Position numbers and translations under genes: made by a program. Positions 426 through 23,303 of a DNA stretch of 64,000 bases are shown piece after piece. The notes beneath the pieces were generated by a model. The model had not been told where the DNA came from and did no database searches. It saw only the letters and a program-made list of their open reading frames with translations. Source of the DNA: an uncultured Candidatus Saccharibacteria bacterium (GTDB lineage Bacteria; Patescibacteriota; Minisyncoccia; UBA9983). Position 1 is the first letter of the stretch; each line of letters begins with the position of its first letter. The DNA is taken from the NCBI GenBank assembly GCA_964438405.1, contig CAYTKF010000002.1:12404-76403 (forward strand). The letters run 5' to 3'.

Positions 426-917
426 ATGAAAACCTTGTTCGTTATCGCAACGTTTTTCTCGCTCACCGGACAAGCGTTCGCTTGCAGTTGTTTGGCACCG
501 AAGGTGTCAGACACTCTGAAGTGGGCAGATGTGGTGTTTTCGGGTGAGGTTATCAAGGTCCAATACGTGGACGCCAAGACCGAGAACATTTTCAACGAGC
601 CGCGGATCATCGTGACATTTAATGTTTCGGATTCGTGGAAGGGTAAAGTTCAGAAAACGATGACGCTTCACACCCGCTATAATATGACTTCATGTAGTGG
701 GCTGATCGTCAAAGAAGGCGATCGGTTTCTCATCTACGCTAAGCGTGTGAAGGCGGGGAATTGGCTTGGACGAGGCGGTGCGCTCAATGGCATCACTTTG
801 CCGAAGCCAGAAGACGATATCCTTCAACCCGGCATTTGTAACAGAAGTGGCCTTCTGGCCGACGCCGACGAGGATCTGAAGGCGCTCGGCCGATCGAAAG
901 CTCCTACCGATAACTAG
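426..917 (+). CDS. Secreted hypothetical protein (signal peptide; lipobox-like AFACSC)
   Basis: ORF 381..917 with an internal ATG preceded by a GGAGGG RBS. Hydrophobic N-terminus MKTLFVIATFFSLTGQAFAC. GC-rich, and located inside the repeat-bracketed cassette. Confidence 0.5.
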   Translation: MKTLFVIATFFSLTGQAFACSCLAPKVSDTLKWADVVFSGEVIKVQYVDAKTENIFNEPRIIVTFNVSDSWKGKVQKTMTLHTRYNMTSCSGLIVKEGDRFLIYAKRVKAGNWLGRGGALNGITLPKPEDDILQPGICNRSGLLADADEDLKALGRSKAPTDN

Positions 918-1090
918 ACGCGGTGGTTGTAGCCGCGCATCAGATCGGGTCGCTCCGCGATAATCTCAACGAGCGGCCCTTTTTCTTTTCAAAGAACAAG
1001 CAATTTGCCTCTAAAGCTAAAATTCGTTAGAATTTTAGTAGTTCGTCCCCTGAACTGCATTTTTCTGAAGCCCAAATGGTTGAGCTCAAA

Positions 1091-1121
1091 GAATTTGCCG
1101 CCAAAGAAAAACTTGAAATTG
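1091..1121. repeat. Direct repeat copy 2, overlapping the -35 region of the rnpB promoter
   Basis: Matches 87-116. Immediately followed by TTGCAA-16/17-TATAAT and the RNase P RNA 5' end. Confidence 0.6.
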
Positions 1122-1146
1122 CAATTTTATTTATTTTTGCTATAAT
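1119..1146 (+). promoter_or_regulatory. Sigma70-like promoter of rnpB (TTGCAA ... TATAAT)
   Basis: -10 TATAAT at 1141-1146 and -35 TTGCAA about 16 nt upstream. The RNase P RNA P1 stem starts about 7 nt downstream. Confidence 0.5.
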
Positions 1147-1152
1147 ATAGCC

Positions 1153-1595
1153 AGTTTTACATCGGGTGGTTGCCCGCCGAAGAGGCGGGAGGAAAGTCCG
1201 AACATCCGCGCATTTGCTTTGCAAATGCTAATCTTAAAAATCAAAAATCAAATCTCAAATCTTTTTGAGATTTTAGATTTAAGATTTTATTTTAGCGCGA
1301 GCGAAGTGAGCGCGACAATGGCAGTGGCTAACAGCCACGATTCAAAAAAGAAATTTTTTGAGTACAGACAGCGCAACAGAAAATATACAGCTTCAATATT
1401 AAGTTGGAGCAATGGTGAAATCGTGCATTAAGAGTGCACGCGTTGATATGGCAACATATCATTGTGGCAAACACTTGCCTGATGCAAGGCCGAATCCGCC
1501 TCATCGGCGGAGGTGCCGCTTGAGCCGTCAAGTAATTGATGAGCCTAGATAAATAACCACACAAAAACAGAATTCGGCTTATAGATGTAAAACTA
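1153..1595 (+). ncRNA. rnpB: RNase P RNA (bacterial type A) with a large AU-rich internal expansion
   Basis: P1 pairing AGTTTTACATC(1153-1163)/GATGTAAAACT(1584-1594). P3 hairpin GCCCGCCGAAGAGGCGGG. P4 5' strand GGAGGAAAGTCCGAAC. GGTGAAATCGTGCATTAAGAGTGCACGCG matches the GGGUGAAA...GGUAAGAGCGCACC block. GCTTGAGCC...GCCTAGATAAAT and the ACAGAATTCGGCTTAT P4 3' strand are also present. Confidence 0.85.
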
Positions 1596-1603
1596 AATAT
1601 ATG

Positions 1604-1640
1604 AAAACCCCGTCGCTCGCGAGCGACGGGGTTTTATTTC
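1604..1640. terminator. Bidirectional rho-independent terminator
   Basis: AAAACCCCGTCGC-TCGCGA-GCGACGGGGTTTTATTT: GC stem flanked by an A-run and a T-run, between rnpB (+) and the HTH gene (-). Confidence 0.7.
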
Positions 1641-1855
1641 TAATCTTCTATCAATTTTATTTTTAATTTTCTTGGTTTGTTCTTTTCTATTCTTTCCAAA
1701 AATTTTTCCAAATCAGCCCGGCGATAAAGTCTATAATTATTAACAGGATGCCGGTGAGCCGCCAATTGTCCCTTTTTATCCCAATTTCTAAGGGTTAATT
1801 CGGAAATCCCCAAAAATTCCGCTGCCTCCTTGATTCTTAGGTAATTCTTCCACAT
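1640..1855 (-). CDS. Small MerR/excisionase-family helix-turn-helix DNA-binding protein
   Basis: 71 aa. LRIKEAAEFLGISELTLRNWDKKG is a typical MerR-type/excisionase (Xis-like) HTH. Confidence 0.55.
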   Translation of the reverse strand: MWKNYLRIKEAAEFLGISELTLRNWDKKGQLAAHRHPVNNYRLYRRADLEKFLERIEKNKPRKLKIKLIED

Positions 1856-1866
1856 AATTAGAGTAT

Positions 1867-4230
1867 ATGGAAAATATTATCAAAAGACAACTCAATTTAG
1901 AAAGAGTGTCGTTTTTAATTATCAGTATTGTAATTTTTCTATTACCAGTTTTCGTTTTACCTTGGCAAAATACGGCCTTTGGTTTAGGCAAATCTTATCT
2001 GTTTTATGGAGGCATTTTGATTTGTTTTTTCTTCTGGCTTTCCTCTTCTTTACAAAAAGGTGAAATCACAATAGCCAAAAGCATTCTCTTTTTGGCCGGG
2101 GTTGGTTTAATTTTGGCATGGCTGTTTTCTTCAATTTTTTCTCCCAACAAACTTTTTTCTCTTATTGGCCAAGGATACGAGACAGATACTTTCGCATTCT
2201 TTCTAATTTCTGTTGTCGCGCTTTTTCTCGTAGCACAGCTTTTTAATTCAGAAAAAAGGGGTTTGATTTTTTACCTTTTAATTCTGGGCTCTGGCATTTT
2301 GGTTTTTCTATTTCAGCTTTTCCATGTTGTTTTTAAATTTGACCTCTTGCCGTTTAAGATTTTTACAAACCCTGTTTCCAATCTCATAGGCGGCTGGAAC
2401 GACTTAGGCATATTTTTCGGATTTGTCTGTTTGGTGTCATTAATCCTTTTTGAACTTTATAAAACAAACAAACTGCAGAGAATTTTATTCCTGATTAGTA
2501 TATTTCTGTCTTTATTGGCCATGGCGGTTGTTAATTTTTTTACCGGTTGGATAATCTTCGGCGTTTTCGCATTTGCTCTTTTTATTTATATATTCTCTCG
2601 TTCCTTCCAGCCCAACAATGATTTGACTGGTGTCCAACCAAGAGGTAATAATATTTTGCGTCTTTCTTTCTTTGTTTTTTTGATAGTCTTATCTTTTATT
2701 CTCGCCTCTAATACAATTGGCCAATTAAGCAATGCCATAGGCATAAACTATATTGAAGTCGGGCCTTCCTGGCAGGCAACCATAAATGTTATTAAAGAAA
2801 CCCTTAAGACAGACCCCATTACAGGATCCGGTCCCAATACCTTTGTTTATGATTGGCTTAGATATAAACCCCTGGCGGTGAATTCAACAATTTTTTGGAA
2901 TTTAAGATTTTCTTCCGGCGTAGGCCAAATTCCATCAATGTTTGCAACGGGCGGCGTCATAACTATTTTGGCAATTTTATTCTTTTTAGGGACAGTTGTT
3001 TTTTATGGATTTAAAACTTTGTCTTCCTATTATCAGAACGAATTAACAGGTGCTGTTTTAATGTCCTCTTTTTTGGGAAGTCTTTATCTGTGGTCATTTG
3101 TAATTTTTTATTCTCCTGGTTTTGTAATTTTTTCAATGGCCTTTTTAAGCACCGGTCTCTTGCTGGCGATGTTGGTCAATAGCCAGAAAATCGGGGTTAT
3201 GAAAATTTCTTTCTTAAGCAGTCCGCGCGCAGGATTTATTTCTGTTTTAAGCGTTGCCGTCTTGGTACTTGGAACAGTTTCGGCATTTTATCTTTTAATT
3301 CAGAAAGTCCAGGCCTCTTATCTTTATGAAAAAGCAACAGCTCCCTTGAACACCATGGCTGATGTTGATAGTGCGCAAAATTATTTATCAAGGGCAGTAA
3401 ATTTAGACAGCCAGGATTATTACCTTCGTTCTCTGGCTGAGATTGATTTGATTAAAATGCAGCAGGCGATATCTGACACAAGCCTTAGTCAGGACCAGGC
3501 AAGGACTAATTTTCAAAATGCTTTGGCATCGGCAATTCAAAATGCGCAGTCAGCCGTCCAAAGCAATATTCAGGAACCTCTTAACTGGCTGGAGCTCGGC
3601 CGAGTGTACGAATCTATCATTCCGCTTAAAATAACAGGCGCGGACACAATGGCTCTTAATTCTTATTCTGAGGCGTCTAAATATTCTCCCTTTGATCCCT
3701 CTGTTCTTTTGGCATCCGCTCGAGTCAAAATACAGATGCAAAATAATGATGATGCCAAAAAGCTTTTGGAATCAGCCATAAATATTAAAAATGATTATGC
3801 GCCGGCAATATTTCTGTTGAGCCAAATAGAGGCGCAGGCCGGCAATATAAAGGGCGCCATCAGCCATACTGAGCAGACGGCAATGCTGGCACCCAATGAC
3901 ATAGGAGTTCTTTTCCAGCTTGGACTTTTATATTATCAGGATAATAATTTTGACGGAGCAAGAATTGTTCTTGAAAGGGCAGTCAGTATTAACAGCGAAT
4001 ATGCCAATGCCAGATATTTTCTGGGTTTGGCTTATGACAAGCTGGGGCAGAAAAATGATGCTCTTGAACAATTTACAGTCATCAGCAAAACAAATCCAGA
4101 TAATGAAGAAATAAAAAAGATAATAGCGAATTTAACCGCCGGTAAACCAGCCCTGGATAAAATTTCTCCTCCAGCTCCGGCCCCGGAAAAAAGAAGCAGT
4201 CCGCCAATTAGTGAAAGCGGAAACAAATAA
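1867..4230 (+). CDS. Polytopic membrane protein (O-antigen ligase/Wzy-like N-terminal region) with C-terminal TPR repeats
   Basis: 787 aa. The first ~450 aa are very hydrophobic and multi-TM. The C-terminus has repeated TPR-like A/Y/L patterns (ARYFLGLAYDKLGQKNDALEQF). Confidence 0.5.
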   Translation: MENIIKRQLNLERVSFLIISIVIFLLPVFVLPWQNTAFGLGKSYLFYGGILICFFFWLSSSLQKGEITIAKSILFLAGVGLILAWLFSSIFSPNKLFSLIGQGYETDTFAFFLISVVALFLVAQLFNSEKRGLIFYLLILGSGILVFLFQLFHVVFKFDLLPFKIFTNPVSNLIGGWNDLGIFFGFVCLVSLILFELYKTNKLQRILFLISIFLSLLAMAVVNFFTGWIIFGVFAFALFIYIFSRSFQPNNDLTGVQPRGNNILRLSFFVFLIVLSFILASNTIGQLSNAIGINYIEVGPSWQATINVIKETLKTDPITGSGPNTFVYDWLRYKPLAVNSTIFWNLRFSSGVGQIPSMFATGGVITILAILFFLGTVVFYGFKTLSSYYQNELTGAVLMSSFLGSLYLWSFVIFYSPGFVIFSMAFLSTGLLLAMLVNSQKIGVMKISFLSSPRAGFISVLSVAVLVLGTVSAFYLLIQKVQASYLYEKATAPLNTMADVDSAQNYLSRAVNLDSQDYYLRSLAEIDLIKMQQAISDTSLSQDQARTNFQNALASAIQNAQSAVQSNIQEPLNWLELGRVYESIIPLKITGADTMALNSYSEASKYSPFDPSVLLASARVKIQMQNNDDAKKLLESAINIKNDYAPAIFLLSQIEAQAGNIKGAISHTEQTAMLAPNDIGVLFQLGLLYYQDNNFDGARIVLERAVSINSEYANARYFLGLAYDKLGQKNDALEQFTVISKTNPDNEEIKKIIANLTAGKPALDKISPPAPAPEKRSSPPISESGNK

Positions 4231-4239
4231 AAAATAACC

Positions 4240-5919
4240 GTGATAAAAAGAATTTTTGATCTTTTTAATCAGGAACTTAGCGGCCTGCATAAGGCCGCTA
4301 TGGTTTTGGCTGTTTCGTCTTTTGCCTCAGGCCTTCTGGCTCTTTTTAGGGACAGGCTTTTGGCAGGCACATTCGGCGCAGGCAGGTTTCTTGATGTTTA
4401 TTACGCCTCTTTTAAAATTCCAGATTTTTTATACACGATTTCTTTGGTAATAATTTCCGTTAATGTTTTGATACCTTCTTTTCTGGAAAAACTTTCTCAG
4501 TCTTCGCATGAGGCAAAAAAATTTTTTGATAACATTTTTTCCATTTTTTTGTTTGCGATTATTGTTTTAACCGGGATTACGTTTTTTTTAACTCCACAAT
4601 TGACCAATATTATTGCCCCGGGTTTTTCTGTTGAAGAAAAAAGACAGCTTATATTAATGGCCAGAATTCTTCTTCTGTCGCCGTTTTTGTTGGGTATTTC
4701 CAATTTATTTTCCGGCATAGTGCAATCTTTTAACAGGTTTTATGTTTATGCCCTGAGCCCGATTTTATATAATTTCGGCATAATTCTCGGCATTTTGTTT
4801 TTTTATCCGTATTTCGGAATTACGGGTCTGGCATTAGGCGTTGGTCTGGGAGCTCTTCTTCACGCCGGAGTGCAGATTCCAAGCATAATCAGTTCCGGTT
4901 TTGTTCCCAAAATTAAATTTAAACTGGATTTTAAAGAGGCGTGGAAGACTATCAAACTTTCTATTCCACGCACGCTCGGCTTGGGCATCAATCAGCTGGT
5001 TTTAATTTTTATAACAGCCTCTGCCTCTCTTTTTGCCGCGGGAAGTATCGCTGTTTTTAATATTTCCTATAATCTGCAGAGCGTGCCCATGGCCATAATC
5101 GGCATAAGCTACAGCGTGGCGGCCTTTCCCACACTTGCAAAACTTTTTGTATCAAACAAAAAAAAAGAATTTATAGAACACGCTGTCACGGCCATGCGCC
5201 AGATAATCTTTTGGTCTATCCCCGTGACAATTATTTTAATAGTTTTGCGTGCCCAGATCGTCAGAGTAATTTTTGGGTATGGCAATTTTGATTGGCAGGA
5301 TACGCGTCTCACCGCTGCCGGCCTGGCAATTTTTACTGTTTCTCTTTTGGCCCAGTCGCTGGTGGTGCTTTTTGTGAGAGCCTTTTACGCCGCAGGAAAA
5401 ACGTTAAAGCCCCTGATTATAAATGTTATTTCGTCAGTATTTATAATCGGCGGTTCTCTTTTGGCAGCCAATGTTCCCGGTATTGTAAATTTTGTTAAAC
5501 CATATATTGAAAATATTTTAAGAGTGAAAGATGTACCTGGTACAGAAATGCTTCTTCTACCAATATTTTTTTCCTTGGGCACCATAATCAACGCCTGCAT
5601 ACTCATAAAAATGTTTGCCAAAGAAGTCGAGCCGGTCTGGCATTACGTCCGGAAAACTTTTTTTGAGATTGTTGTTGCCTCGCTGGTCATGGGAATGGTG
5701 ACCTATGCCTCGCTTAATTTTTTGGACAAACTTTTTAATATTCAGACATTTATAGGAATTTTTCTGCAGGGATTTGTGTCAGCGTTATTCGGCCTGGGAT
5801 TCTGGTTTGGCGTTCTGCGTTCTGCAAAAAATAAAGAACTGGAAGAAATTATTTCCTCTCTCAAACAAAAATTCTGGAAAACTCCGGCCATTGCACCAGA
5901 ACCGGAAGAACTGCCATAG
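4240..5919 (+). CDS. murJ: Lipid II flippase MurJ/MviN
   Basis: 559 aa. The N-terminus LAVSSFASGLLALFRDRLLAGTFGAGRFLDVYYASFKIPDFLYT matches the MurJ signature. About 14 TM segments. Confidence 0.8.
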   Translation: MIKRIFDLFNQELSGLHKAAMVLAVSSFASGLLALFRDRLLAGTFGAGRFLDVYYASFKIPDFLYTISLVIISVNVLIPSFLEKLSQSSHEAKKFFDNIFSIFLFAIIVLTGITFFLTPQLTNIIAPGFSVEEKRQLILMARILLLSPFLLGISNLFSGIVQSFNRFYVYALSPILYNFGIILGILFFYPYFGITGLALGVGLGALLHAGVQIPSIISSGFVPKIKFKLDFKEAWKTIKLSIPRTLGLGINQLVLIFITASASLFAAGSIAVFNISYNLQSVPMAIIGISYSVAAFPTLAKLFVSNKKKEFIEHAVTAMRQIIFWSIPVTIILIVLRAQIVRVIFGYGNFDWQDTRLTAAGLAIFTVSLLAQSLVVLFVRAFYAAGKTLKPLIINVISSVFIIGGSLLAANVPGIVNFVKPYIENILRVKDVPGTEMLLLPIFFSLGTIINACILIKMFAKEVEPVWHYVRKTFFEIVVASLVMGMVTYASLNFLDKLFNIQTFIGIFLQGFVSALFGLGFWFGVLRSAKNKELEEIISSLKQKFWKTPAIAPEPEELP

Positions 5920-5922
5920 GGT

Positions 5923-5951
5923 TGACAGAAAATTTGTTTTGATTTAATATA
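5923..5951 (+). promoter_or_regulatory. Sigma70-like promoter (TTGACA-17-TAATAT) for the alpha-CTD-like gene
   Basis: GGTTGACAgaaaatttgttttgattTAATATacc followed by an AACGGAGGTG RBS and ATG at 5962. Confidence 0.5.
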
Positions 5952-5961
5952 CCAAACGGAG

Positions 5962-6681
5962 GTGGACAATATGTCCTTTAAAACCAAGAGGTTTGTTGAG
6001 TTCAATTTTGTTGTCTCTACAGAAGAACTTGGGCGTTGTCTTATCGATGAGTTAGGACAGGTAGTAAAACACCTACAACTTCTTGATAACGAAGGTCTTA
6101 AGTCAATAACAAAACGCTCTTTGAGCGGAAGCTTGAGATTGGAAAAGAGTGGGGTAGGACTAACCCTTTCTTTCTGTGAGGAAAAACAAACAGAAACGTC
6201 CAAAATAATGGCTACTTTCTGTGAAGAGACAGAAACATCTAAATTGGCTAGCTCTTTGAGTTTTTTTGCATCTGAACTTAAGGCATTACAAGAGAAGTAT
6301 TTTAGTTTGGTTAGCGGGACCATCGAGGGTAAATTTGTTTTGGCTGGTCCGGAATCACCGGGACCAGTTGAACAAGCGATTGCTGAACTTCCGCGACTTC
6401 CCGAAGAACTTCAAGAAGAGCAAGAAATTGACATGTCACGGTTTCCCAACTGGAATGGTTCACAAAAAGACCTGAAAACACTTCTTGCAACTCCATGGGA
6501 GAACAAGATGGAAGTAACTGTTAGGACATACAATCGTTTCAAAGATAACAACATTAGAACGATCGGCGATGTTGTTAAAAAAACAGAGGGTCAACTTTTG
6601 AACATAAAACATTTCGGCCACAAATCACTTAATGAAGTGAAAGGATGTTTGGAGCAAGTTGGTCTTAATCTGAAATCTTAG
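5962..6681 (+). CDS. Protein with a C-terminal RNA polymerase alpha-subunit CTD-like domain and a novel N-terminal region
   Basis: The C-terminal ~55 aa VTVRTYNRFKDNNIRTIGDVVKKTEGQLLNIKHFGHKSLNEVKGCLEQVGL follow the RpoA alphaCTD pattern (SVRSxNCL...IGDLV...TExELL...GxKSLxEIK). The N-terminus has no RpoA NTD features and contains an internal FCEEKQTETSKI/FCEETETSKL repeat. Confidence 0.55.
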   Translation: MDNMSFKTKRFVEFNFVVSTEELGRCLIDELGQVVKHLQLLDNEGLKSITKRSLSGSLRLEKSGVGLTLSFCEEKQTETSKIMATFCEETETSKLASSLSFFASELKALQEKYFSLVSGTIEGKFVLAGPESPGPVEQAIAELPRLPEELQEEQEIDMSRFPNWNGSQKDLKTLLATPWENKMEVTVRTYNRFKDNNIRTIGDVVKKTEGQLLNIKHFGHKSLNEVKGCLEQVGLNLKS

Positions 6682-6830
6682 TTGTTGTTCGTTCGTCGCC
6701 CGAATCTGAAAAGAGGAGGGCTTTTTGTTTGGTAAATTTTTTAAAAAACCGACTCTTATTTGCTATAGCTGATAAGAGTATAAAATTTAAAATTTGCTGA
6801 AAGTGTTAAAATAAATTAGTATTTATAATA

Positions 6831-9050
6831 ATGGAAGTTAAGAATATTCGGAATTTTTCCATTATTGCACATATTGACCACGGTAAGTCCACGTTGGCGG
6901 ATAGGTTTTTGGAAATCACTAAAACTGTCGAAAAAAGAAAAATGAAAGAGCAGTTTTTGGACCAGATGGAGCTGGAAAGAGAACGTGGAATAACTATTAA
7001 GATGCAACCCGTCAGAATGCTTTATAGCACGCGGATAGACGCGGATAAAGACGCAGATAAACGCGGATTACTATATGAAGATTTGACCTATAAATTAAGG
7101 GGCATGTTTTTTAATGTCTATAATAAACTTGGCCCGGGACACAAAAAGAATATCTATAGTAATGCCCTGGAAAAAGAGTTAATTAACAAGAACTTAAAAT
7201 TTGACAAAGAAAAAACAATGGAAGTTTTATATGACAATGAACAGGTTGGAATTTACAGACCAGATTTTGTTATTGAAGATAAAATTATTATCGAATTAAA
7301 AGCGCTACCCTTTATTGGTAAGTTAGAAAAAAAACAGATTTGGCATTATCTAAAAGGTTCAAATTACAGATTGGCATTATTGGTAAATTTTGGCGGAAGA
7401 GAATTACAAATAGAACGTATAATTTATGATAATATCCGCGACAATCAGCGTAATAATCAGCAAGAATCTGTGTATATTCTAAATTTGATTGACACTCCTG
7501 GGCATATTGATTTTTCATATGAGGTTTCGCGGGCGTTAAAGGCGGTTGAAGGCGCTGTGCTTCTTGTTGACGCCACTCAGGGCGTGCAGGCCCAGACAAT
7601 CGCCAACGTGGAAACGGCAAAATCTTTGGGTCTGACTATTATTCCAGTAATTAATAAAATAGATTTGGCATCAGCAATGATAGAAGAAACAAAAGAAGAA
7701 ATAAAAAAATTACTGGGCGAAACAGATATTTTGGAAGTGTCAGCCAAAAGCGGTCAGGGAGTGGAAGATTTGCTTCAAAAAATAATAAAAAGAGTGCCAG
7801 CGCCAAAATTTGAAAACGAATCTAGCCCTCGTGCCCTTGTTTTTGATTTTGAATATTCCAGCCATCAGGGAATTATTGCTTATATCAGAATGATAGACGG
7901 AGAAATAAAAAAAGGAGATGAACTTCTGCTTTCGCAGACAAAAGAAAAATTTGTTGTTGCCGAAACCGGAATTTTTCTGCCCAACCGGAATCCGGTTTTG
8001 AAATTAAGTGCGGGTGAAATCGGCTATATTGTTACAAATATTAAAAAGCCAAATGTGGCTGTTGTCGGAGATACTGTCATATCACAAAAAAATACACTGG
8101 CGCCTCTTTCTGGTTATCTTCAACCCAAGCCTGTTGTCTGGGCAAGCATATATCCTGAATCTCAGGATGATTTTGATGCGTTTAAACAAGCTCTGGAGAG
8201 ATTACGGCTCTCTGATAGTTCATTAAGTTTTGAGGAGGAGAATAATGGCGCATTGGGTCGTGGATTTAAATGCGGTTTTTTAGGCATGCTGCATTTGGAA
8301 ATTATCACAGAACGTTTGCGCCGCGAATTTAATCTTAAATTAATAACAGCGTCACCGACAGTCACTTATATGCTTGAACTTAAAGATAGTTCCCCAAAAG
8401 AAATTTATTCGCCGATTTCTTTTCCCGAGGAACATCTCATAAAAAAAATTTCAGAGCAATGGGCAGAATTGCAGATCATGGTTCCGTCGGAAAAAATGGG
8501 ATTGATTTTCCCTGTGCTTTACGACCACGAGGCTGAAGTTGGGGACACGGAAAAATTCGGAGAAAATCACACTCTTATAAAAGCCAAGATGCCGTTAAGA
8601 GAATTAATGCGTAATTTTTTTGATGAGCTCAAAAGCGCCACTTCCGGATATGGTTCTCTGGGGTATAAAATTTTGGGTTTTCAAGAAACGCCCCCGGGCA
8701 AAATAGTCCGTTTGGATATTTGGGTGGCAGACGAAATCATGCCGGTTTTTTCCCGTATAATAAGTAGAGAAAGAGTGGAATATGAATCCAGAAGAATCGT
8801 TGAAAAACTGGCGGAAATTATTCCCCGTCAGCTTTTTACAATAAAAATTCAGGCCAAGGCTCTGGGCAGAATTATTGCCTCGCGCTCCATTTCCGCTCTT
8901 AAAAAAGATGTCACCGGCTATCTTTACGGCGGAGACAGAACGCGCAAGATGAAACTTTGGCAGAAGCAGAAGCGCGGAAAAAAGAGAATGAAAGAATTTG
9001 GAAAGGTTAATATTCCCTCAGATGTTTTTATAAAGATGATGCAGAATTAA
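6831..9050 (+). CDS. lepA: Translation elongation factor 4 (LepA) carrying a ~150-aa in-frame inserted domain
   Basis: NIRNFSIIAHIDHGKSTLADR (G1), DTPGHIDF (G3), NKIDL (G4) and the LepA-specific C-terminus ...KKRMKEFGKVNIPSDVF. 739 aa against ~600 typical. Confidence 0.9.
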   Translation: MEVKNIRNFSIIAHIDHGKSTLADRFLEITKTVEKRKMKEQFLDQMELERERGITIKMQPVRMLYSTRIDADKDADKRGLLYEDLTYKLRGMFFNVYNKLGPGHKKNIYSNALEKELINKNLKFDKEKTMEVLYDNEQVGIYRPDFVIEDKIIIELKALPFIGKLEKKQIWHYLKGSNYRLALLVNFGGRELQIERIIYDNIRDNQRNNQQESVYILNLIDTPGHIDFSYEVSRALKAVEGAVLLVDATQGVQAQTIANVETAKSLGLTIIPVINKIDLASAMIEETKEEIKKLLGETDILEVSAKSGQGVEDLLQKIIKRVPAPKFENESSPRALVFDFEYSSHQGIIAYIRMIDGEIKKGDELLLSQTKEKFVVAETGIFLPNRNPVLKLSAGEIGYIVTNIKKPNVAVVGDTVISQKNTLAPLSGYLQPKPVVWASIYPESQDDFDAFKQALERLRLSDSSLSFEEENNGALGRGFKCGFLGMLHLEIITERLRREFNLKLITASPTVTYMLELKDSSPKEIYSPISFPEEHLIKKISEQWAELQIMVPSEKMGLIFPVLYDHEAEVGDTEKFGENHTLIKAKMPLRELMRNFFDELKSATSGYGSLGYKILGFQETPPGKIVRLDIWVADEIMPVFSRIISRERVEYESRRIVEKLAEIIPRQLFTIKIQAKALGRIIASRSISALKKDVTGYLYGGDRTRKMKLWQKQKRGKKRMKEFGKVNIPSDVFIKMMQN
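7028..7070 (+). repeat. Imperfect tandem repeats of ~12 nt (ACGCGGATAAAG-like, ~4 copies) inside lepA
   Basis: cACGCGGATAGACGCGGATAAAGACGCAGATAAACGCGGATTAc encodes STRIDADKDADKRG at the N-terminal junction of the inserted domain. Confidence 0.7.
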
Positions 9051-9169
9051 TTAAAAAAGGGGTATGAGCAGAAAGGCCACCATGCTTAAAACAGCAAGTA
9101 CTGATATAATTGTCCAGATTATTTGAAATTTTCTTTTTTGTTTGTTCACTGATATACTATAATAAATTT

Positions 9170-9556
9170 ATGAGCGGGTTTCAAGAGAAGAAAAACAGGG
9201 GAAAATTTATTTATTCTAAAAAATTTTTTGTTTTCTTGTTTCTTGTTTTTGTTTTTGTCGTCTATTCCACAGCCGGGGTTTATTTAAAAAGCCGCAGTGC
9301 CTCGCTTAAAAGCGATGAAATCCAGAAAGAATTGCAGGCAGCGCAGGAAAGAAAAAATAATATAGAGAATGAACTGGGCCGGCTTAACAGCCCGGCCGGC
9401 GAAGAAGAAGAAATACGCGGCAATCTTAACGTGGTAAAACCCGGAGAGAGTCTTTTGATAATCGTGGAAAAAAACAGCCAAAATGCTAATATAAATAATA
9501 ATAACAGCAATGGATTTTTTAACAGCATTATTGACTGGATAAAAAGCAAATTTTAA
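9170..9556 (+). CDS. FtsB/DivIC-like septum formation initiator (single TM plus coiled coil)
   Basis: N-terminal TM FVFLFLVFVFVVY followed by the coiled coil EIQKELQAAQERKNNIENELGRLN. The ATG at 9170 is preceded by TATACTATAAT. Confidence 0.45.
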   Translation: MSGFQEKKNRGKFIYSKKFFVFLFLVFVFVVYSTAGVYLKSRSASLKSDEIQKELQAAQERKNNIENELGRLNSPAGEEEEIRGNLNVVKPGESLLIIVEKNSQNANINNNNSNGFFNSIIDWIKSKF

Positions 9557-9558
9557 CC

Positions 9559-9629
9559 GCGGATATGGTTTAGTGGCAGAACGCGACCTTCCCAAGGTTG
9601 AGATCGGGGTTCGATTCCCCGTATCCGCA
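9559..9629 (+). tRNA. tRNA-Gly(CCC)
   Basis: Cloverleaf folds by hand: acceptor GCGGATA/TATCCGC, anticodon stem CGACC/GGTTG with loop TTCCCAA, T-arm CGGGG-TTCGATT-CCCCG. Confidence 0.8.
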
Positions 9630-9666
9630 TGTGTTAATTATTAAAAAAGACAAAAAAGAGGAATTT

Positions 9667-10476
9667 TTGGAAAAAACTAAGGGCAAGTTTGAGGTTTTTT
9701 CCGCCCAAGGCGGACCCGCCTCTGGCGGAGATTCCTTTAAAAAATATCTCCTACCCCCAATAGAAGATATTGAATCCAAACCACCTAAAAAATTTGTCAT
9801 TATTGGCCTAAGTGATTGTGATTTAGAAGCAATAATTCAGCTGGATGAAATAATGACAAGGCCAGTGCGAGATTCTCTTTACTGGCAAAGAAGGGAACAG
9901 GCGATTATTGTTGGTTCAGACGACAAAAACGCAAAAAAGTTTGTTGAAGATTATAAAGAATTTTTGGAGGAAACAATGGAAGCGTTGCTTCCACTTGGAA
10001 GCGTCGCTTCCAAGTGGGCTGACTGGACGAAGTCCATGCGCCAGCTTCTGCTTGATTCCGAGCTTTTGGCAAATGCAGTTGAATGGTCTCACGACCATAA
10101 AATCTGGGACGATTTGGCAATACGATGTTTGGGCTGTGGCATTTGCACTTATGTCTGCCCACTTTGTTACTGCTTTTCAATGGAGGATAGTGTCGGGTTT
10201 GATGGTGTATGTAAAAGATGCAAAAAATGGGACGCTTGCACCTTGCCGAATTTTTCAAAAATCGCCGGAGGACATGATTTTAGGCCGAGCATCAAAGAAA
10301 GATATTATAACTGGTTTTACCACAAATTCGTGCGCGCCTATAAAGAATATGGTAAATCCCAATGCGTCGGCTGTGGAAGATGCAAAAGCCAGTGTCCGGC
10401 TGGCATAGATATTTATGAAGTGTTAAAAATTATTTTAGAAGATTATGGAAAATATTTATCAGCCGCAAAAAATTAA
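9667..10476 (+). CDS. hydB: [NiFe]-hydrogenase (group 3b/sulfhydrogenase-like) beta subunit, Fe-S protein
   Basis: CxxCxxCxxxCP ferredoxin motifs (CLGCGICTYVCP and CVGCGRCKSQCP). First gene of the hyd operon. The start is uncertain because the ORF track start lies inside the tRNA; TTG at 9667 with an AGAGGA RBS is proposed. Confidence 0.6.
   Translation: MEKTKGKFEVFSAQGGPASGGDSFKKYLLPPIEDIESKPPKKFVIIGLSDCDLEAIIQLDEIMTRPVRDSLYWQRREQAIIVGSDDKNAKKFVEDYKEFLEETMEALLPLGSVASKWADWTKSMRQLLLDSELLANAVEWSHDHKIWDDLAIRCLGCGICTYVCPLCYCFSMEDSVGFDGVCKRCKKWDACTLPNFSKIAGGHDFRPSIKERYYNWFYHKFVRAYKEYGKSQCVGCGRCKSQCPAGIDIYEVLKIILEDYGKYLSAAKN
9977..10023. repeat. In-frame ~45-nt double-palindrome element inside hydB
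   Basis: TGGAAGC-GTT-GCTTCCA c TTGGAAGCG-T-CGCTTCCAA GTGGGCT. The reverse complement recurs at 13235-13278 inside hydA with 2-3 mismatches. Confidence 0.8.
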
Positions 10477-11212
10477 AATAAAAAAAGTTGAGGAACTTTC
10501 GCCAACCGTGAAGTTATTTCGGTTGGCGGGTAATTTTGTTTTTAAGCCTGGGCAATTCTTTCTGCTTGGCAGAATCGGTTATGGCGAGGCGCCGTTCGGC
10601 GCGCTTTCATCGCCGTACGAAAAAGATTATTTGGAATTTGCGATACGAGCCGTTGGAACTGTCACTAATTTTTTGCATACCCTAAAAAACGGCGATGAAA
10701 TTGAAATCCGGGGTCCGTTTGGCAATGGATTTCCTTTGGATTTTATAGAAAATAAAGATATTGTCATGGTCAGCGGTGGTTCCGGTATTCCGCCAATCGC
10801 GTCGCTTACAGAATACATTATCAAAAACCGCGAAAAATTTAAAAATGTTTATCTGCTTTACGGTTCAAAAACAGAAGAAGAAATTTTACTAAAAGACAGA
10901 TTTGAAAAATGGGGCGAGGCGCGAGTAAAAGTTATGATGCTCGCCGGCGGATTTGTAACTGACTTAATAAAAGATATAAACGTTGACGAGCAAAATGCCG
11001 TTTGCCTAATGTGCGGACCCGGGCCAATGACAGATGCCATAGAAAAAGTTATAAGGCCGCTCGGCATTTCCGACAGGAGAATTTTTGTAAGCATTGAACG
11101 CAGGATGCAGTGCGGAATAGGCAAGTGCCAGCATTGCACAACAGGAAGCAAATACACCTGTCTCGACGGTCCAGTGTTTTATTATGACGAAATAGACAAA
11201 AACTGGGATTAA
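10445..11212 (+). CDS. hydG: Hydrogenase gamma subunit: FAD/NAD(P)-binding oxidoreductase with a C-terminal 2Fe-2S cluster (PyrK-like)
   Basis: Ferredoxin-NADP reductase-like fold motifs (GSGIPP, LLYGSKTEEE) and the C-terminal CGxGxCxxC cluster motif CGIGKCQHCTTG...C. Confidence 0.7.
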   Translation: MENIYQPQKIKIKKVEELSPTVKLFRLAGNFVFKPGQFFLLGRIGYGEAPFGALSSPYEKDYLEFAIRAVGTVTNFLHTLKNGDEIEIRGPFGNGFPLDFIENKDIVMVSGGSGIPPIASLTEYIIKNREKFKNVYLLYGSKTEEEILLKDRFEKWGEARVKVMMLAGGFVTDLIKDINVDEQNAVCLMCGPGPMTDAIEKVIRPLGISDRRIFVSIERRMQCGIGKCQHCTTGSKYTCLDGPVFYYDEIDKNWD

Positions 11213-11277
11213 ACCACTGGGCTTGCTTTTCCCCTAGTATTTATTATCTTGGAACTAGAGGATTTTGCTGAAAGGAG

Positions 11278-11667
11278 GTGAGGAATATGACTATCAGCGA
11301 TCTCCAACAATTTGCTCTTAAGGTAGCCGGGCTCACGGCTGAGTATTTCGGGAGCATGGACACGGACAAGGTTCGTTTTCTCAATGAAATCTCAAGGGTC
11401 GTCAGGAGGAAAAAAGATGTAGCCACTCTGACTTGTTTCAATAGCCACATTCTTGTCTTCTGGCAAGGACGACAGAACACCATTTTTTCTCTTCTAAAAG
11501 AAGGAAGAAATGAATTGCCTGACAGCGAGATGATTGACTGGCGAAATGAAGCCCATGAGCATTTCAAAAGATTCTCTCACTTGAGATTTCAGGTGAGGGT
11601 TGGACGGATAGAATCAATTGTTGAAGAAATTCAAAAAATTGTTGACACCATCCGTCATGCTCCCTAA
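11278..11667 (+). CDS. Hypothetical 129-aa protein inserted between hydG and hydD
   Basis: Strong RBS AAAGGAGGTGAGG 6 nt before the ATG. GC-rich relative to its flanks. No recognisable motif. Confidence 0.45.
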   Translation: MRNMTISDLQQFALKVAGLTAEYFGSMDTDKVRFLNEISRVVRRKKDVATLTCFNSHILVFWQGRQNTIFSLLKEGRNELPDSEMIDWRNEAHEHFKRFSHLRFQVRVGRIESIVEEIQKIVDTIRHAP

Positions 11668-11731
11668 GGGGTTCTTTGATAACAAAGACCCCTTTCTGTT
11701 TAATACGGCTACCAAATGTTATAATTATTTT

Positions 11732-12475
11732 ATGAAACCCAAAGTTGCAATTTATGATTTTACAGACTGCGAGGGATGCGAAGTGAAGCTTATTTCTCTG
11801 CGCGAGAAATTACTTTTGATTGAAGATAAATTAAATATTGTTAACTGGCGTTTTGGTCAGGAAAAATTTAATGCCGGGCCCTATGACATTACAATTATAG
11901 AGGGAACGCCTATTACAGAAAGCGAAGTTAAATTATTAAAAGAATTAAGGCAAAATTCAAAAGTTTTAATTGCTCTTGGCGCCTGCGCTGGACTGGGCGG
12001 CATTCCCGCAATCATTCCGCAAAAAGACAGAAAATTTTGGTACGATAAAATTTACACTTCGCAATACACGCCCCAGGGCATAGACGCCTTACCGCTCTCT
12101 GCTTACGTACCAATTGATTTTACTATTCACGGATGTCCGGTTGATGAAAATGAGGTGGTGCGTGTCGTGGAGGAACTTTTAAGCGGTAAAAAACCACATT
12201 ACAGGGGCTATTCCGTATGTTTTGAGTGCAAGCTGGCTGGCAACGAGTGCAGAATAATAAATAACAAGCCGTGTCTTGGTCCCATAACGCAAGGCGGATG
12301 CAATGCAGTTTGTATCACGGGCGGCTCGCCGTGTTACGGATGTTTTGGTTTGCGAAGCGAGGCAAATATTCCAGCGCTTATAAAAATTTTAGAAAAACTA
12401 ACTAATATTAAGGTTGTAGAAAATTATCTCAGTATGTTTCATAATAGAACAAAAGAAATAAAAAATGATCACTAA
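11732..12475 (+). CDS. hydD: [NiFe]-hydrogenase small (delta) subunit
   Basis: MKPKVAIYDFTDCEGCE N-terminal Cys motif plus further Cys clusters, typical of group-3 small subunits and NuoB-like proteins. Confidence 0.7.
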   Translation: MKPKVAIYDFTDCEGCEVKLISLREKLLLIEDKLNIVNWRFGQEKFNAGPYDITIIEGTPITESEVKLLKELRQNSKVLIALGACAGLGGIPAIIPQKDRKFWYDKIYTSQYTPQGIDALPLSAYVPIDFTIHGCPVDENEVVRVVEELLSGKKPHYRGYSVCFECKLAGNECRIINNKPCLGPITQGGCNAVCITGGSPCYGCFGLRSEANIPALIKILEKLTNIKVVENYLSMFHNRTKEIKNDH

Positions 12476-13667
12476 CGAATTTATCGCAAAAATTGAGGGA
12501 CACGGAAGTTTAAAAATTGATTGGAGCGCAGGCAAAGTTAAACTTCATATTGACGAAGGCGAACGGCTTTTTGAAGGAATTTTAGTTAATAGGCCGGCAG
12601 AAAATGCTTCATGGATAACTCCGCGCATCTGCGGAGTTTGCCCGATTGCGCACAATCTTGCTTCGCTTTCTGCAATAGAAGACGCGCTTGGCATTAAAAT
12701 AACAGAAACTTCACAATTTTTAAGAGATTTAATGCAAACAGTTCAAATGATGCAAAGTCATGTCCTGCATTTGTTTTTTCTTGCCTTGCCGGATTATATC
12801 AGGATTGACAGAGGCACAGAATTAGCAAAAAAAGAACCTAACGCATTTAAAAAGGCATTGTTTATAAAAGAAATAAGCGATGAGATTGCAAGTGTTGTTG
12901 CCGGCAGAAATGTTCATCCCACAACAACAACCATCGGCGGATTTCATAAAATCCCTTCAAAAAAACAGCTTGAAAATCTGCTTAAAAAACTGGAAAAAGG
13001 CGAAAAAGATGCGGAATGGGTGCCGAAATATTTTTCTAAATTAAAATATCCGAAGTTAAAAGTTGATTTGGAACTGGTGGCAATCAGCGGAGACGAAGTT
13101 GTTTCTAATAAAGGCGGTAAATTTTTGATAAAAGATTACAAACAAAATATTGAGGAAGAATTACGAGATTATTCCACGGCTAAGTTCGGCAAACTTCAGG
13201 GCAGAGAGATAATGGTAGGGGCGTTGGCGAGATTAGCTCACTTGGAAGCGTCGCTTCCAAGTGGAAGCATCGCTTCCAAATTGGACTTTTCCAATCCCTT
13301 TCACAACAATCTCGCTCAGGCAATTGAAATAGAAATGTTTTATAAAAAGGCCGAGAAAATTATAAAAAAATTATTAAGCATAGAAATGGATAATAAAATA
13401 ATTCCAGCGTCAATTAGCGACGGTGCAGGTATCGGCGCAGTTGAGGCGCCCAGGGGCGGGCTTTACCATGAAATTCATGTCAATCAAGAGGGGATTGTCA
13501 CTTACGCAAATATTGTTACTCCAACAGTGCAAAATTTAACTTCTATAGAAAAATCAGCACAAGAATTATTAAATCAGACGAAAAAATTGGATAATAAAGA
13601 GAGAGAAAGATTATTGAACATGCTCGTCCGCAGCTACGACCCGTGCATAACCTGCTCAGTGCATTAA
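12465..13667 (+). CDS. hydA: [NiFe]-hydrogenase large (alpha) subunit
   Basis: N-terminal RICGVCPIAH (CxxC Ni ligands) and C-terminal DPCITCSVH (DPCxxCxxH motif). Confidence 0.8.
   Translation: MITNEFIAKIEGHGSLKIDWSAGKVKLHIDEGERLFEGILVNRPAENASWITPRICGVCPIAHNLASLSAIEDALGIKITETSQFLRDLMQTVQMMQSHVLHLFFLALPDYIRIDRGTELAKKEPNAFKKALFIKEISDEIASVVAGRNVHPTTTTIGGFHKIPSKKQLENLLKKLEKGEKDAEWVPKYFSKLKYPKLKVDLELVAISGDEVVSNKGGKFLIKDYKQNIEEELRDYSTAKFGKLQGREIMVGALARLAHLEASLPSGSIASKLDFSNPFHNNLAQAIEIEMFYKKAEKIIKKLLSIEMDNKIIPASISDGAGIGAVEAPRGGLYHEIHVNQEGIVTYANIVTPTVQNLTSIEKSAQELLNQTKKLDNKERERLLNMLVRSYDPCITCSVH
13235..13278. repeat. In-frame ~45-nt double-palindrome element inside hydA, inverted orientation of the hydB copy
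   Basis: AGCTCAC TTGGAAGCG-T-CGCTTCCAA g TGGAAGC-ATC-GCTTCCA encodes LEASLPSGSIASKL. Its reverse complement aligns with 9977-10023. Confidence 0.8.
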
Positions 13668-13699
13668 TTTTAAAAACAAAAAACGCCAGTGCTATAAAG

Positions 13700-14365
13700 T
13701 TAAACTTTATTCCTGGCGCGAAGCTTGTTAAACTTATCAAGAGAACGATGCGTCAGAACCGTAACGGCCCTGGCGTCAACAATATCGAGTTTTTCTATTA
13801 TGTGAGAAAAATGAATTGTTACTGGATCGCCGGCCTTAAGTTTGGCGAAAAAAATATTTTTTACTTCTTTCTGGTTTGGTCTTTCAGCAAGAACTAATTT
13901 CTTGTCGCGAATTTCAACGGGAAAATATTTTACAACAACTCTGTCAGGAAATATTCCGTTGACAACCGCCTGGTGTACAAAGCAGTCATCCACAAGGTTA
14001 ACGTCAATATGTTCGGAGGGAAGATTACTGATCGGCATGAGCGTGGTAAAATTGTGCCACAGCTCGCCGTCCAATTTCGGCCTTCCCCGCCAGTAATAAG
14101 AGATAACTCGCTGGTCAAACGGGTCCTCGACACCGTTTATTTCAGCTATGGTTTTGTAAAACCTATAGCTGTCAAATCTCTCAAGGATATTTCTGGCCGA
14201 ATCTTCTTTTAAATTCCCCAAAGAAAATTCCCTTAATCTTTCAGCCATGCCAAAATGCTTGGCGTGCTGGCAGTTAAAAGAATACCGGCATGCCAACTGC
14301 AATCCCTCTCGGTTCATCTCCTCATGTTCCTCTCTTGAATTAAATGTGCTGGGTATGTTTTCCAT
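13700..14365 (-). CDS. Hypothetical protein downstream of hypC
   Basis: 221-aa ORF overlapping the hypC stop. No motif recognised. A Cys pair CRYSFNCQH is present. Confidence 0.4.
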   Translation of the reverse strand: MENIPSTFNSREEHEEMNREGLQLACRYSFNCQHAKHFGMAERLREFSLGNLKEDSARNILERFDSYRFYKTIAEINGVEDPFDQRVISYYWRGRPKLDGELWHNFTTLMPISNLPSEHIDVNLVDDCFVHQAVVNGIFPDRVVVKYFPVEIRDKKLVLAERPNQKEVKNIFFAKLKAGDPVTIHFSHIIEKLDIVDARAVTVLTHRSLDKFNKLRARNKV

Positions 14366-14561
14366 TTACCAATTTTAAGATTTTTTTTGCCTCTGTCAAT
14401 GGAATTTTGTTAATAGCCATATCGCCGTGCGCAAGAATGTAATCGCCGACTTTCGGATATTTTATCAAACTTAAATCAACTGTATGGCTGTGGTTATACG
14501 AACCAACCACAGCTGTTTTGCCTTTAATCTTTAATATTTTCATCGGCGTTGCTAAACACAT
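14340..14561 (-). CDS. hypC: Hydrogenase maturation factor HypC/HupF
   Basis: 73 aa starting with MCLATP, the canonical HypC MCLAIP N-terminus. Confidence 0.8.
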   Translation of the reverse strand: MCLATPMKILKIKGKTAVVGSYNHSHTVDLSLIKYPKVGDYILAHGDMAINKIPLTEAKKILKLVNGKHTQHI

Positions 14562-14587
14562 AAAAATATGATAGCATAATATCCGTT

Positions 14588-14821
14588 ATGAAAAAAGTTA
14601 AAATTTATTCTACGCCTACATGCGTTTACTGCAGAATGGCTAAAGATTGGTTCAGCCAAAACAAAATATCTTTTGAAGAATACGATGTTTATATGGATGC
14701 AGAAAAAAGGAAAGAGATGATGGAAAAAACCGGTCAGATGGGAGTGCCAGTGATAATGGTTGATGAAGAAATAATTGTTGGCTTTGACAAAAAAAGGCTG
14801 GGAGAATTGCTGGAGATATAA
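14588..14821 (+). CDS. Glutaredoxin-like protein (NrdH/Grx family)
   Basis: 77 aa with CVYC active site (TPTCVYCRMAK) and GVPVIMVDEEIIVGFD. Confidence 0.75.
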   Translation: MKKVKIYSTPTCVYCRMAKDWFSQNKISFEEYDVYMDAEKRKEMMEKTGQMGVPVIMVDEEIIVGFDKKRLGELLEI

Positions 14822-14829
14822 ATTGGTGA

Positions 14830-14901
14830 GCCCTTGTAGCTCAACGGATAGAGCAATCCCGTCCTAAGGGAGAGATACGGGTTCAATTCCTGTCGAGGGC
14901 A
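14830..14901 (+). tRNA. tRNA-Arg(CCT)
   Basis: Acceptor GCCCTTG/CGAGGGC, D-arm TAGCTCAACGGATAGAGCA, anticodon loop GTCCTAA, T-arm ACGGG-TTCAATT-CCTGT. Confidence 0.7.
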
Positions 14902-14903
14902 TA

Positions 14904-14974
14904 GGGCCTATAGTATAGTGGCAGAACATCTCCATGGCATGGAGAAGGTCGGGGTTCGATTCCCCGTAGGTCCA
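14904..14974 (+). tRNA. tRNA-Ala(GGC)
   Basis: Acceptor GGGCCTA/TAGGTCC carrying the G3:U70 Ala identity pair. Anticodon loop ATGGCAT. T-arm CGGGG-TTCGATT-CCCCG. Confidence 0.75.
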
Positions 14975-14995
14975 AAGATGTGCTAATATTTATTT

Positions 14996-15235
14996 ATGCC
15001 AAACGAAGAATTAAAACAATTACTTAAACAGAATCTTGAAGTTTCGGAAGAAAGTTTAAAGATTTTGAAAAAGTTAAATAAGAGCAGAAGAATGGGTAGT
15101 TTATTTTTTGTTTTTAAGTGGTTGATTATTATAGGTTTGGCAATCGGCGCGTTTTACTATCTTGAACCGTATATAAACCAGATCAAAACAATGTACAGCC
15201 AAGTGCAGGATTTGCAGAAAATAATGCCGAAGTAG
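14996..15235 (+). CDS. Small hypothetical membrane protein (doubtful)
   Basis: 79-aa ORF with one TM segment. Its 3' end overlaps tRNA-Phe by 10 nt. Confidence 0.3.
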   Translation: MPNEELKQLLKQNLEVSEESLKILKKLNKSRRMGSLFFVFKWLIIIGLAIGAFYYLEPYINQIKTMYSQVQDLQKIMPK

Positions 15236-15297
15236 CTCAGTGGTAGAGCATTTCTCTGAAAAAGAAAGGGCCGTGAGTTCGATTCTCACCTTCGGCA
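15226..15297 (+). tRNA. tRNA-Phe(GAA)
   Basis: Acceptor GCCGAAG/CTTCGGC, D-arm TAGCTCAGTGGTAGAGCA, anticodon loop CTGAAAA, T-arm GTGAG-TTCGATT-CTCAC. Confidence 0.85.
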
Positions 15298-15314
15298 AAT
15301 TAAAAAGAAAATAT

Positions 15315-15767: not shown

Positions 15768-15781
15768 AAATTTTTATAATT

Positions 15782-20885: not shown

Positions 20886-21009
20886 AATATTAAAACTAAT
20901 TATAAATTAATGGTCCAAAATAAAAAAGGGGAGCGTTTCAACGTCTTTCGACTCCACGCCCCCCGCTCTGCACTCAACGCCGTCCCAGAGGGCTGTGGAT
21001 AAATAAAAA

Positions 21010-21099
21010 CGGAAGCGGGTGGATTCGAACCACCGATCCGCCTCAGCGGCGGATACCGCTTTTCGAGAGCGGCCCATTCAACCACTCTGGCACGCTTCC
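21010..21099 (-). tRNA. tRNA-Ser(CGA)
   Basis: Reverse complement reads GGAAGCG-TGCCAGAGTGGTTGAATGGG-CCGCT CTCGAAA AGCGG, then a long variable arm, then GGTGG-TTCGAAT-CCACC CGCTTCC G. Confidence 0.85.
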
Positions 21100-21113
21100 A
21101 TACAAAAACTTTT

Positions 21114-21392: not shown

Positions 21393-21401
21393 TGGAAAAT
21401 T

Positions 21402-23284: not shown

Positions 23285-23303
23285 AATACATTAATTATAT
23301 ACG

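Follow-up and report, generated by a model that had tools for sequence, protein, structure and literature searches.

What can the C-terminal domain of the RNA polymerase alpha subunit (alpha-CTD) do at the end of a protein that is not an alpha subunit? Residues of the E. coli domain touch the minor groove and the backbone of A/T-rich UP-element DNA; an alpha-CTD in isolation binds DNA only weakly. The question is raised by a gene on the forward strand of a 64,000-nucleotide stretch of DNA from an uncultured Candidatus Saccharibacteria bacterium, referred to below as the window. An earlier note on this DNA assigned the end of the product to the alpha-CTD family, considered the remainder unrelated to the alpha dimerisation domain, and suggested that the orphaned domain could serve as a decoy or an adaptor.

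An open reading frame does occupy positions 5962–6681 of the forward strand; the preferred gene within it runs from ATG 5971 to the stop codon ending at 6681 and encodes 236 residues. Because the GTG at 5962, where the gene had been taken to start, falls inside the GGAGG of the Shine-Dalgarno sequence, and because public gene calls agree, ATG 5971 is the likely start. The identical 236-aa product is found in the public gene calls of six other, independent contigs, from three ENA assemblies and as many Logan runs, and the DNA of the gene is 100% identical in all seven copies. Codon usage was assessed with log-odds trained on 26 long ORFs from the 64-kb window. The in-frame values range from 0.20 to 0.38 across all four quarters of the gene, as compared with 0.335 ± 0.109 for 60-codon blocks of the training genes, and the remaining two forward frames give values from −0.42 to −0.77. 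Since codon usage is gene-like in every quarter, the N-terminal part is coding and is not a spurious upstream extension. An antisense ORF of 193 aa at 5742–6323 behaves as a shadow ORF. The gene had also been described as GC-richer than its neighbours, which the numbers contradict: its GC content is 0.397, against 0.399 for murJ, 0.384 for lepA and a window mean of 0.397. It lies at the 49.5th percentile among 711-bp windows of the 64-kb stretch, and no GC or compositional anomaly relative to the window is seen at the gene.

The sequence features that had been proposed to drive expression are present (Table 1). The TTGACA-17-TAATAT element, confirmed as a promoter-like match, sits in the 51-nt spacer between murJ and the gene and is the sole such site within 5600–7000. 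It implies a transcription start at about 5957 and thus a leader of approximately 14 nt. Sites matching the consensus in at least 10 of 12 positions number 46 in the window, compared with 21.7 ± 4.5 in first-order Markov simulations, which is an approximately two-fold enrichment under which about half of the sites are expected by chance. Because of this enrichment, and because many of these sites lie directly upstream of genes or RNA genes, the sigma-70-type consensus seems to apply in the host and the site upstream of the gene seems credible. The strong ribosome-binding site of the earlier note is likewise found. Downstream of the gene, a hairpin was considered as an intrinsic terminator and rejected, its stability being no better than that of shuffled sequences (z 0.26). 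Between this hairpin and lepA, no promoter-like site matching at least 9 of 12 positions was found; therefore, read-through from the gene into lepA, and with it co-transcription, is possible. It is firmly shown that the gene is real, that it is probably expressed, and that its product is not RpoA but carries an alpha-CTD that is intact.

Table 1. Features of the alpha-CTD gene and its surroundings (positions in the window)
Feature	Position	Strand	Description
15.7-kb block	5920–21634		Absent at the same position in two syntenic relatives, where murJ adjoins trxB
Sigma-70-type promoter-like site	5922–5950	+	TTGACA-17 nt-TAATAT; consensus match 10/12
Shine-Dalgarno sequence	5959–5963	+	GGAGG, 7 nt before ATG 5971
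Alpha-CTD gene	5971–6681	+	CDS for 236 aa, ending in TAG; N-terminal orphan domain followed by acidic Pro-rich tether and alpha-CTD
N-terminal part	5971–6303	+	aa 1–111; three Cys (23, 69, 84); pI 5.9
Short internal duplication	6170–6243	+	6170–6204 vs 6215–6243, 80–83% identical, 6-nt indel
Acidic proline-rich segment	6304–6462	+	aa 112–164; pI 4.1, 6 Pro, 10 D+E
Alpha-CTD-type helix-hairpin-helix domain	6463–6678	+	aa 165–236; Pfam core aa 179–229, nt 6505–6657
Weak terminator-like hairpin	6698–6732	+	GCCC...GGGC then UUUUUGUUUGG; −11.1 kcal/mol

The assignment of the C-terminus to the alpha-CTD family is borne out by both sequence and structure comparisons. The PF03118 model matches with 57.5 bits against a cut-off of 23.8 (E 1.1e-15) over aa 179–229, the single stretch of this kind that Pfam detects in the protein. 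A phmmer search of PDB sequences returned 43 RpoA chains, every one of them matched through the CTD, with mycobacterial and Streptomyces alpha subunits as the best matches (E ~3e-11). Relative to residues 260–314 of E. coli alpha, which aligned cleanly, 25 of 55 positions (45%) are identical. An AlphaFold (AF2) model, for which aligned CTD segments of homologues served as input, is good for the CTD only; it is confident over aa ~150–236, with pLDDT values of 88–97. When compared by Foldseek, the CTD model superimposes on alpha-CTDs solved by crystallography and cryo-EM with TM scores of 0.92–0.95 and rmsd values of 0.7–1.0 Å (for example 1z3e_B, 8hvr_K, 7vpd_S and 1lb2_E). Alpha-CTDs whose structures were determined in complex with DNA (3n4m, 3n97 and 9zum) are matched as well. 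The domain is basic (pI 9.6) and lies behind an acidic tether.

The rest of the protein does not resemble the alpha subunit, in agreement with the earlier note. Of the families that make up the alpha dimerisation and assembly domain, neither PF01193 (RNA_pol_L) nor its insert PF01000 (RNA_pol_A_bac) is matched even at E≤10, and Smith-Waterman comparison with the RpoA sequences of E. coli and B. subtilis and with a printed segment of M. tuberculosis RpoA gives scores no better than those of shuffles. The z values for aa 1–117 and aa 118–178 are 0.57–0.75, with one of −1.21, the M. tuberculosis segment being compared with aa 118–178 only; the alignment of the tether to the RpoA inter-domain linker (z ~0.6) is not significant by itself. 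Eight NCBIfam RpoA models match over the last ~60 positions only, with 39–60 bits against cut-offs of 228–523; among the RpoA equivalogs, TIGR02027 and PRK05182 give 54–60 bits and lie below their cut-offs of 227.8–434. Some HMM alignments extend to aa 118–137, which corresponds to the RpoA linker and the last helix of its N-terminal domain, and the top Foldseek matches align ~190 columns with RpoA chains of full length. Both observations prompted the idea that the tether, or the whole N-terminus, is a degenerate RpoA remnant. The idea was rejected on the shuffle-level scores and on the rmsd of the long structural alignments, which is 15–22 Å; the E-values of these alignments are no better than those of CTD-only matches. 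Only the CTD is demonstrably RpoA-like.

The position of the gene is also unlike that of rpoA, which is usually located within an rpsM-rpsK-rpsD-rpoA-rplQ cluster. The gene lies outside any ribosomal-protein/rpoA cluster and is flanked by murJ and lepA. Because the protein is without the assembly and dimerisation domain, is encoded outside the rpoA cluster and scores below the RpoA cut-offs, the protein that bears this alpha-CTD is ruled out as an alpha subunit of RNA polymerase. In structural terms, then, the domain is orphaned from alpha as had been proposed. A tblastn search of the window with the CTD and with E. coli RpoA found no other alpha-CTD, alpha N-terminal domain or rpoA. A run of ORFs at 49.4–52.1 kb, which by size could have been S13-S11-S4-rpoA-L17, was dismissed; its first two ORFs have no assignment, and the others encode zincin, GH18 and cupin proteins. 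On general grounds, the alpha assembly domain is indispensable to bacteria, and therefore the protein described here is presumably not the only alpha of its genome.

The residues through which the alpha-CTD contacts DNA were located by adding 80 to the numbering of the protein, as mapped on the E. coli sequence. The "265 determinant" of the E. coli domain, made up of R265, N268, N294, G296, K298, S299 and E302, contacts DNA. Six of these seven residues are kept in the present protein as R185, N188, G216, K218, S219 and E222. The seventh is changed: N294 is replaced by His214 at a position occupied by Asn in at least 90% of the aligned CTDs. In addition, the conserved N-C-L has become N-R-F; the near-invariant positions of the family, as judged from the aligned CTDs, are otherwise kept. 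Consequently, the DNA affinity of the domain may differ owing to His214 and N-R-F. Because the DNA-contact residues are largely intact, UP-element-like DNA binding by the CTD is plausible. Compared with a typical RpoA alpha-CTD, the domain thus shares family, fold and a preceding flexible segment, whereas it differs in these two substitutions, in ending at the last helix, and in being without the alpha N-terminal domain and the rpoA neighbourhood.

The N-terminal part is an orphan in every collection searched. A word-indexed search of 5.8 billion protein clusters with aa 1–165 returned only the protein itself at E≤10, and comparison of the same segment with PDB sequences gave nothing relevant. 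No match to the N-terminal part was obtained in Pfam, NCBIfam, PHROGs or PADLOC, and it is absent from all 149 top CTD matches (phmmer --max). When the full-length protein was used as the phmmer query against 1.84 billion representatives, the best 150 matches were CTD-only, and weaker N-terminal matches could rank below these. The AF2 model predicts a beta-alpha-beta-beta-alpha arrangement for aa 1–111 with low confidence (pLDDT 40–69). The internal peptide repeat recorded earlier is real and small, pairing FCEEKQTETSK (aa 68–78) with FCEETETSK (aa 83–91); the underlying duplication is not reported by Tandem Repeats Finder. The segment that follows, aa 112–164, reads as a flexible tether, as it is predicted to be largely disordered up to ~aa 150 (pLDDT 41–62).

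The surroundings of the gene bear on its possible origin. The gene order is a TPR membrane protein, murJ, the alpha-CTD gene, lepA, ftsB/divIC, a tRNA and NiFe-hydrogenase genes. Farther downstream lie hsp20, prsW, a class I aminoacyl-tRNA synthetase, tsaD and sua5, and then trxB, a dsbA-like gene, ftsZ, ftsA, ybeY and hisS. The neighbours are ordinary chromosomal housekeeping genes. When the representative genomes of GTDB were scanned with MurJ, two relatives emerged (L007 and L008), whose MurJ proteins are 56% and 51% identical to that of the window. Both are collinear by tblastx with the window at 750–5920 and 21634–28021, and the MAG of the second comes from run DRR093004, from deep-sea massive sulfide deposits (PMC6946796). 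The 15.7-kb block between these collinear parts begins at its left edge with the alpha-CTD gene and continues, according to Pfam, with lepA, ftsB/divIC, the NiFe-hydrogenase genes, hsp20, prsW, the class I aminoacyl-tRNA synthetase, tsaD, sua5 and tRNAs. The block is housekeeping in content. It is a rearrangement, not an island, with the alpha-CTD gene at the breakpoint. By synteny, there is no orthologue of the gene in the two relatives. A mobile-element or phage origin was considered and set aside, there being no PHROG match at E≤1, no IMG/VR relative, and housekeeping genes on both sides; PADLOC anti-phage defence models likewise gave no match at E≤1.

The distribution of the domain gives a different picture from that of the whole protein. 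The earlier note implied that an orphan alpha-CTD is a rarity, whereas PF03118 outside RpoA is in fact very common. The phmmer search of 1.84 billion representatives gave 2915 matches at E≤1e-3, and all of the best 149 carry at least two alpha-CTD copies. Among 99 matches that were scanned against Pfam, PF03118 was present in all 99, TPR in 42 and sigma-70 region 4 in 12; an architecture of TPR and two CTDs measures ~440 aa, and one protein has 11 CTD copies. These proteins from uncultured or environmental bacteria are the best-scoring relatives of the CTD studied here and share with it the occurrence of PF03118 outside RpoA. They differ from it in having two or more CTDs, many with TPR or sigma region 4, whereas the present protein has one CTD and no TPR, and its N-terminal part is found in none of the top 149. 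The architecture of the protein itself, which the earlier note suggested looking for in related genomes and phages, was not found elsewhere. No full-length homologue appeared among the best 150 matches in the 1.84 billion representatives, nor in the 5.8 billion clusters, the GTDB genomes, IMG/VR or the JGI metagenomes.

Other proteins with alpha-CTD-like domains offer partial parallels. Foldseek against BFVD identifies small phage proteins annotated as alpha-CTD, including proteins of 111–139 aa from uncultured Caudovirales, one of 149 aa from Mycobacterium phage Mithril and one of 240 aa from Rhodococcus phage Finch. Like the present protein, these are short non-RpoA proteins with one alpha-CTD-like domain, but they resemble it weakly and over the CTD only (best E 4e-4), and the present gene sits among housekeeping genes with average GC. 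A tblastn search of phage records found rpoA-like CTDs only, at 35–38% identity. Two NCBIfam models that align to the CTD region score far under their family cut-offs, so that the protein is a member of neither: NF005841 (PRK07758, a hypothetical family of 95 aa) reaches 14.6 of 115 bits over aa 189–235, and NF011498 (PRK14906, a beta-prime variant) 22.9 of 1437 bits over aa 180–232. These matches suggest that alpha-CTD-like modules occur in other protein contexts. Francisella has two rpoA genes, whose products alpha1 and alpha2 are both full-length subunits that assemble into RNA polymerase (PMC3294249); it resembles the present case in having a second alpha-CTD-bearing gene per genome, whereas the present protein is without the assembly domain. 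Full-text literature searches turned up no characterised free or orphan alpha-CTD protein. Non-RpoA alpha-CTD proteins are thus a well populated kind that is functionally unexplored.

The relation of the CTD to its homologues also bears on its age. Its best single-domain score against the best 149 matches is 50.6 bits, and its identity is 31–42% in the alignment of CTD segments and about 35–50% to the nearest sequences, which makes it roughly equidistant from all others. Because no single-CTD protein reaches the 61 bits at which the best 149 of the 2915 matches end, the domain was not copied recently from any rpoA sampled, presumably that of the host included. Its divergence, combined with retention of the near-invariant positions of the family, argues for long-term constraint rather than for a fresh, decaying copy.

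On this basis, the reading favoured here, which is held tentatively and at a little below an even chance, is that of a lineage-restricted accessory protein in which a free, tethered alpha-CTD-type domain binds A/T-rich upstream DNA and the N-terminus serves self-association or binding to a partner. The CTD would act as a free module on A/T-rich DNA upstream of promoters, and the orphan N-terminal domain would supply self-association or a partner contact; because the N-terminal fold is of low confidence, self-association is a guess. At A/T-rich sites the protein could compete with, or substitute for, the polymerase's own alpha-CTDs and so modulate transcription. Against this reading speak the weak DNA binding of isolated alpha-CTDs, the absence of orthologues from the collections searched, and the replacements at N294 and N-C-L.

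Proteins rather than DNA might instead be the main target, with the free alpha-CTD titrating regulators whose usual contact is the alpha-CTD of the polymerase, or bridging them to another partner through the N-terminal domain, as the words decoy and adaptor implied. The alpha-CTD surface is a known protein-docking platform, since Foldseek also matches its solved complexes with Spx, CAP, AfsR and RpaA; in the present protein the CTD fold is intact, and E261, T285 and E286 of the activator and sigma patches are kept as E181, T205 and E206. Such patches are, however, species-specific, and four further positions are changed (D258 to N, D259 to K, V287 to G and E288 to Q). Moreover, the region of E. 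coli R317 would lie past the C-terminus, as the protein stops right after the last helix, and with murJ and lepA as neighbours no candidate partner gene adjoins. A role of this kind is therefore regarded as unlikely. The domain might also work in trans on the polymerase, either with alpha split, so that rpoA is without its CTD, or with the N-terminal domain docking on RNA polymerase to provide a third alpha-CTD. A globular domain, a long flexible tether and a CTD do mimic the architecture of alpha, and full-length RpoA chains head the Foldseek matches. These long alignments nevertheless have the high rmsd values and unimproved E-values given above, the N-terminal part and the tether are without significant sequence similarity to RpoA (z 0.6–0.75), and we know of no earlier case of a bacterial alpha that is split, which makes this arrangement highly improbable.

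An explanation without any selected function has to be weighed as well, namely that an alpha-CTD fragment was fused to unrelated sequence during the rearrangement of the 15.7-kb block and that the resulting chimera is young or transient. As a singleton, the gene is restricted to a single population, it lies exactly at the synteny breakpoint relative to the two relatives, and its N-terminal part, an ORFan, contains a small duplication of recent date and has a low-confidence fold. The CTD does not fit this account, as it is no recent copy and keeps its conserved residues, no single-CTD RpoA-type protein above 61 bits being among the best matches. Nor do the gene-like codon usage throughout the frame, the consensus-like promoter and the strong Shine-Dalgarno sequence. 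The relatives, with MurJ identities of 51–56%, are distant, so that absence of the gene from them says little about its age. Such a chimera is considered unlikely on the whole, with a far from negligible chance of being the right explanation.

The favoured reading of a DNA-binding accessory protein can be extended to a broader role, in which the free, tethered alpha-CTD would be a global tuner of UP-element-dependent promoters in a bacterium whose relatives are without the gene, either by occupying A/T-rich upstream DNA in competition with the alpha-CTDs of the polymerase or by docking on RNA polymerase through the orphan N-terminal domain as an additional alpha-CTD. This extension is distinctly unlikely; we know of no characterised example of transcription control by a detached part of the polymerase. 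If true, it would mean that a DNA-recognition module of the polymerase works apart from the polymerase. As it stands, the gene is a fusion of an ORFan to a well-known domain, restricted to a single population, and one more sign that PF03118 is mobile. Since PF03118 is in use as a phylogenomic marker (PMC3663571), a caution for marker-gene pipelines is that a match to it need not be rpoA. If the protein functions as proposed, it would provide a handle on the large uncharacterised pool of non-RpoA alpha-CTD proteins in metagenomes and phages.

The lepA gene, which encodes EF4, contains about 135 additional amino acids in frame within its GTPase domain. This extra segment contains a domain with the PD-(D/E)XK nuclease fold, which Pfam PDDEXK_3 matches at aa 84-196 with 106.7 bits. 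It is flanked by the ERERGITIK and DTPGH motifs of the LepA GTPase domain, and the GTP_EFTU match on LepA is split into two stretches. An identical 739-aa LepA product is called on the ENA contigs, public contigs carrying the same locus. The segment could represent a domain insertion or the remnant of a mobile element in a conserved translation factor.

The lepA gene belongs to a 15.7-kb housekeeping block, which also includes ftsB, a NiFe-hydrogenase operon, hsp20, prsW, an aaRS gene, tsaD, sua5, and seven tRNAs. At this position, the two nearest syntenic relatives, in which murJ abuts trxB, carry a short intergenic spacer alone. Three tRNA genes (21010-21392) are located at the right edge of the block. 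The hydrogenase genes encode a 4Fe-4S protein and three subunits (FAD/NAD-binding, small, and large). On the ENA contig, hypC and a glutaredoxin gene are found close to them.

Coordinates of the features discussed (window numbering unless a relative is named)
Feature	Position	Strand	Context
lepA (EF4) with insertion	6831-9050; insertion nt ~7026-7445, about aa 66-205	+	Pfam matches
15.7-kb housekeeping block	5920-21634		between murJ and trxB; compared with relatives L007 (6606-6682) and L008 (515-567)
NiFe-hydrogenase gene set	9598-13667	+	directly 3' of lepA, ftsB, and a tRNA
Sigma-70-like promoter match	38037-38064		then ATG 38073
Sigma-70-like promoter match	42140-42113	-	then start 42106
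Sigma-70-like promoter match	14399-14372	-	then start 14365
Sigma-70-like promoter match	1119-1146		then RNase P RNA at 1154

In several cases among the top-scoring sigma-70-like promoter sites, only 7-9 nt separate the end of the site from a start codon or an RNA 5' end. This spacing hints that mRNAs of the source organism may be leaderless or have very short leaders.

Within the alpha-CTD gene, an internal GGGAG lies 6 nt 5' of the Met180 ATG (window 6495-6510, + strand; ..tGGGAGaacaagATGgaa..). Initiation at this ATG could in principle yield a putative 57-aa product consisting of the alpha-CTD core alone; it is just as possible that the GGGAG arises by chance from the codons for W-E-N-K-M.

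The 149 best of 2915 matches to the alpha-CTD protein comprise a large population of uncharacterised proteins with 2-11 tandem alpha-CTD domains each, including one 1031-aa protein with 11 copies. Fusions to other domains are frequent: of the 99 proteins scanned against Pfam, 42 carry TPR repeats and 12 carry sigma-70 region 4. As a class, these multi-alpha-CTD proteins look more interesting than the single alpha-CTD gene (5971-6681).
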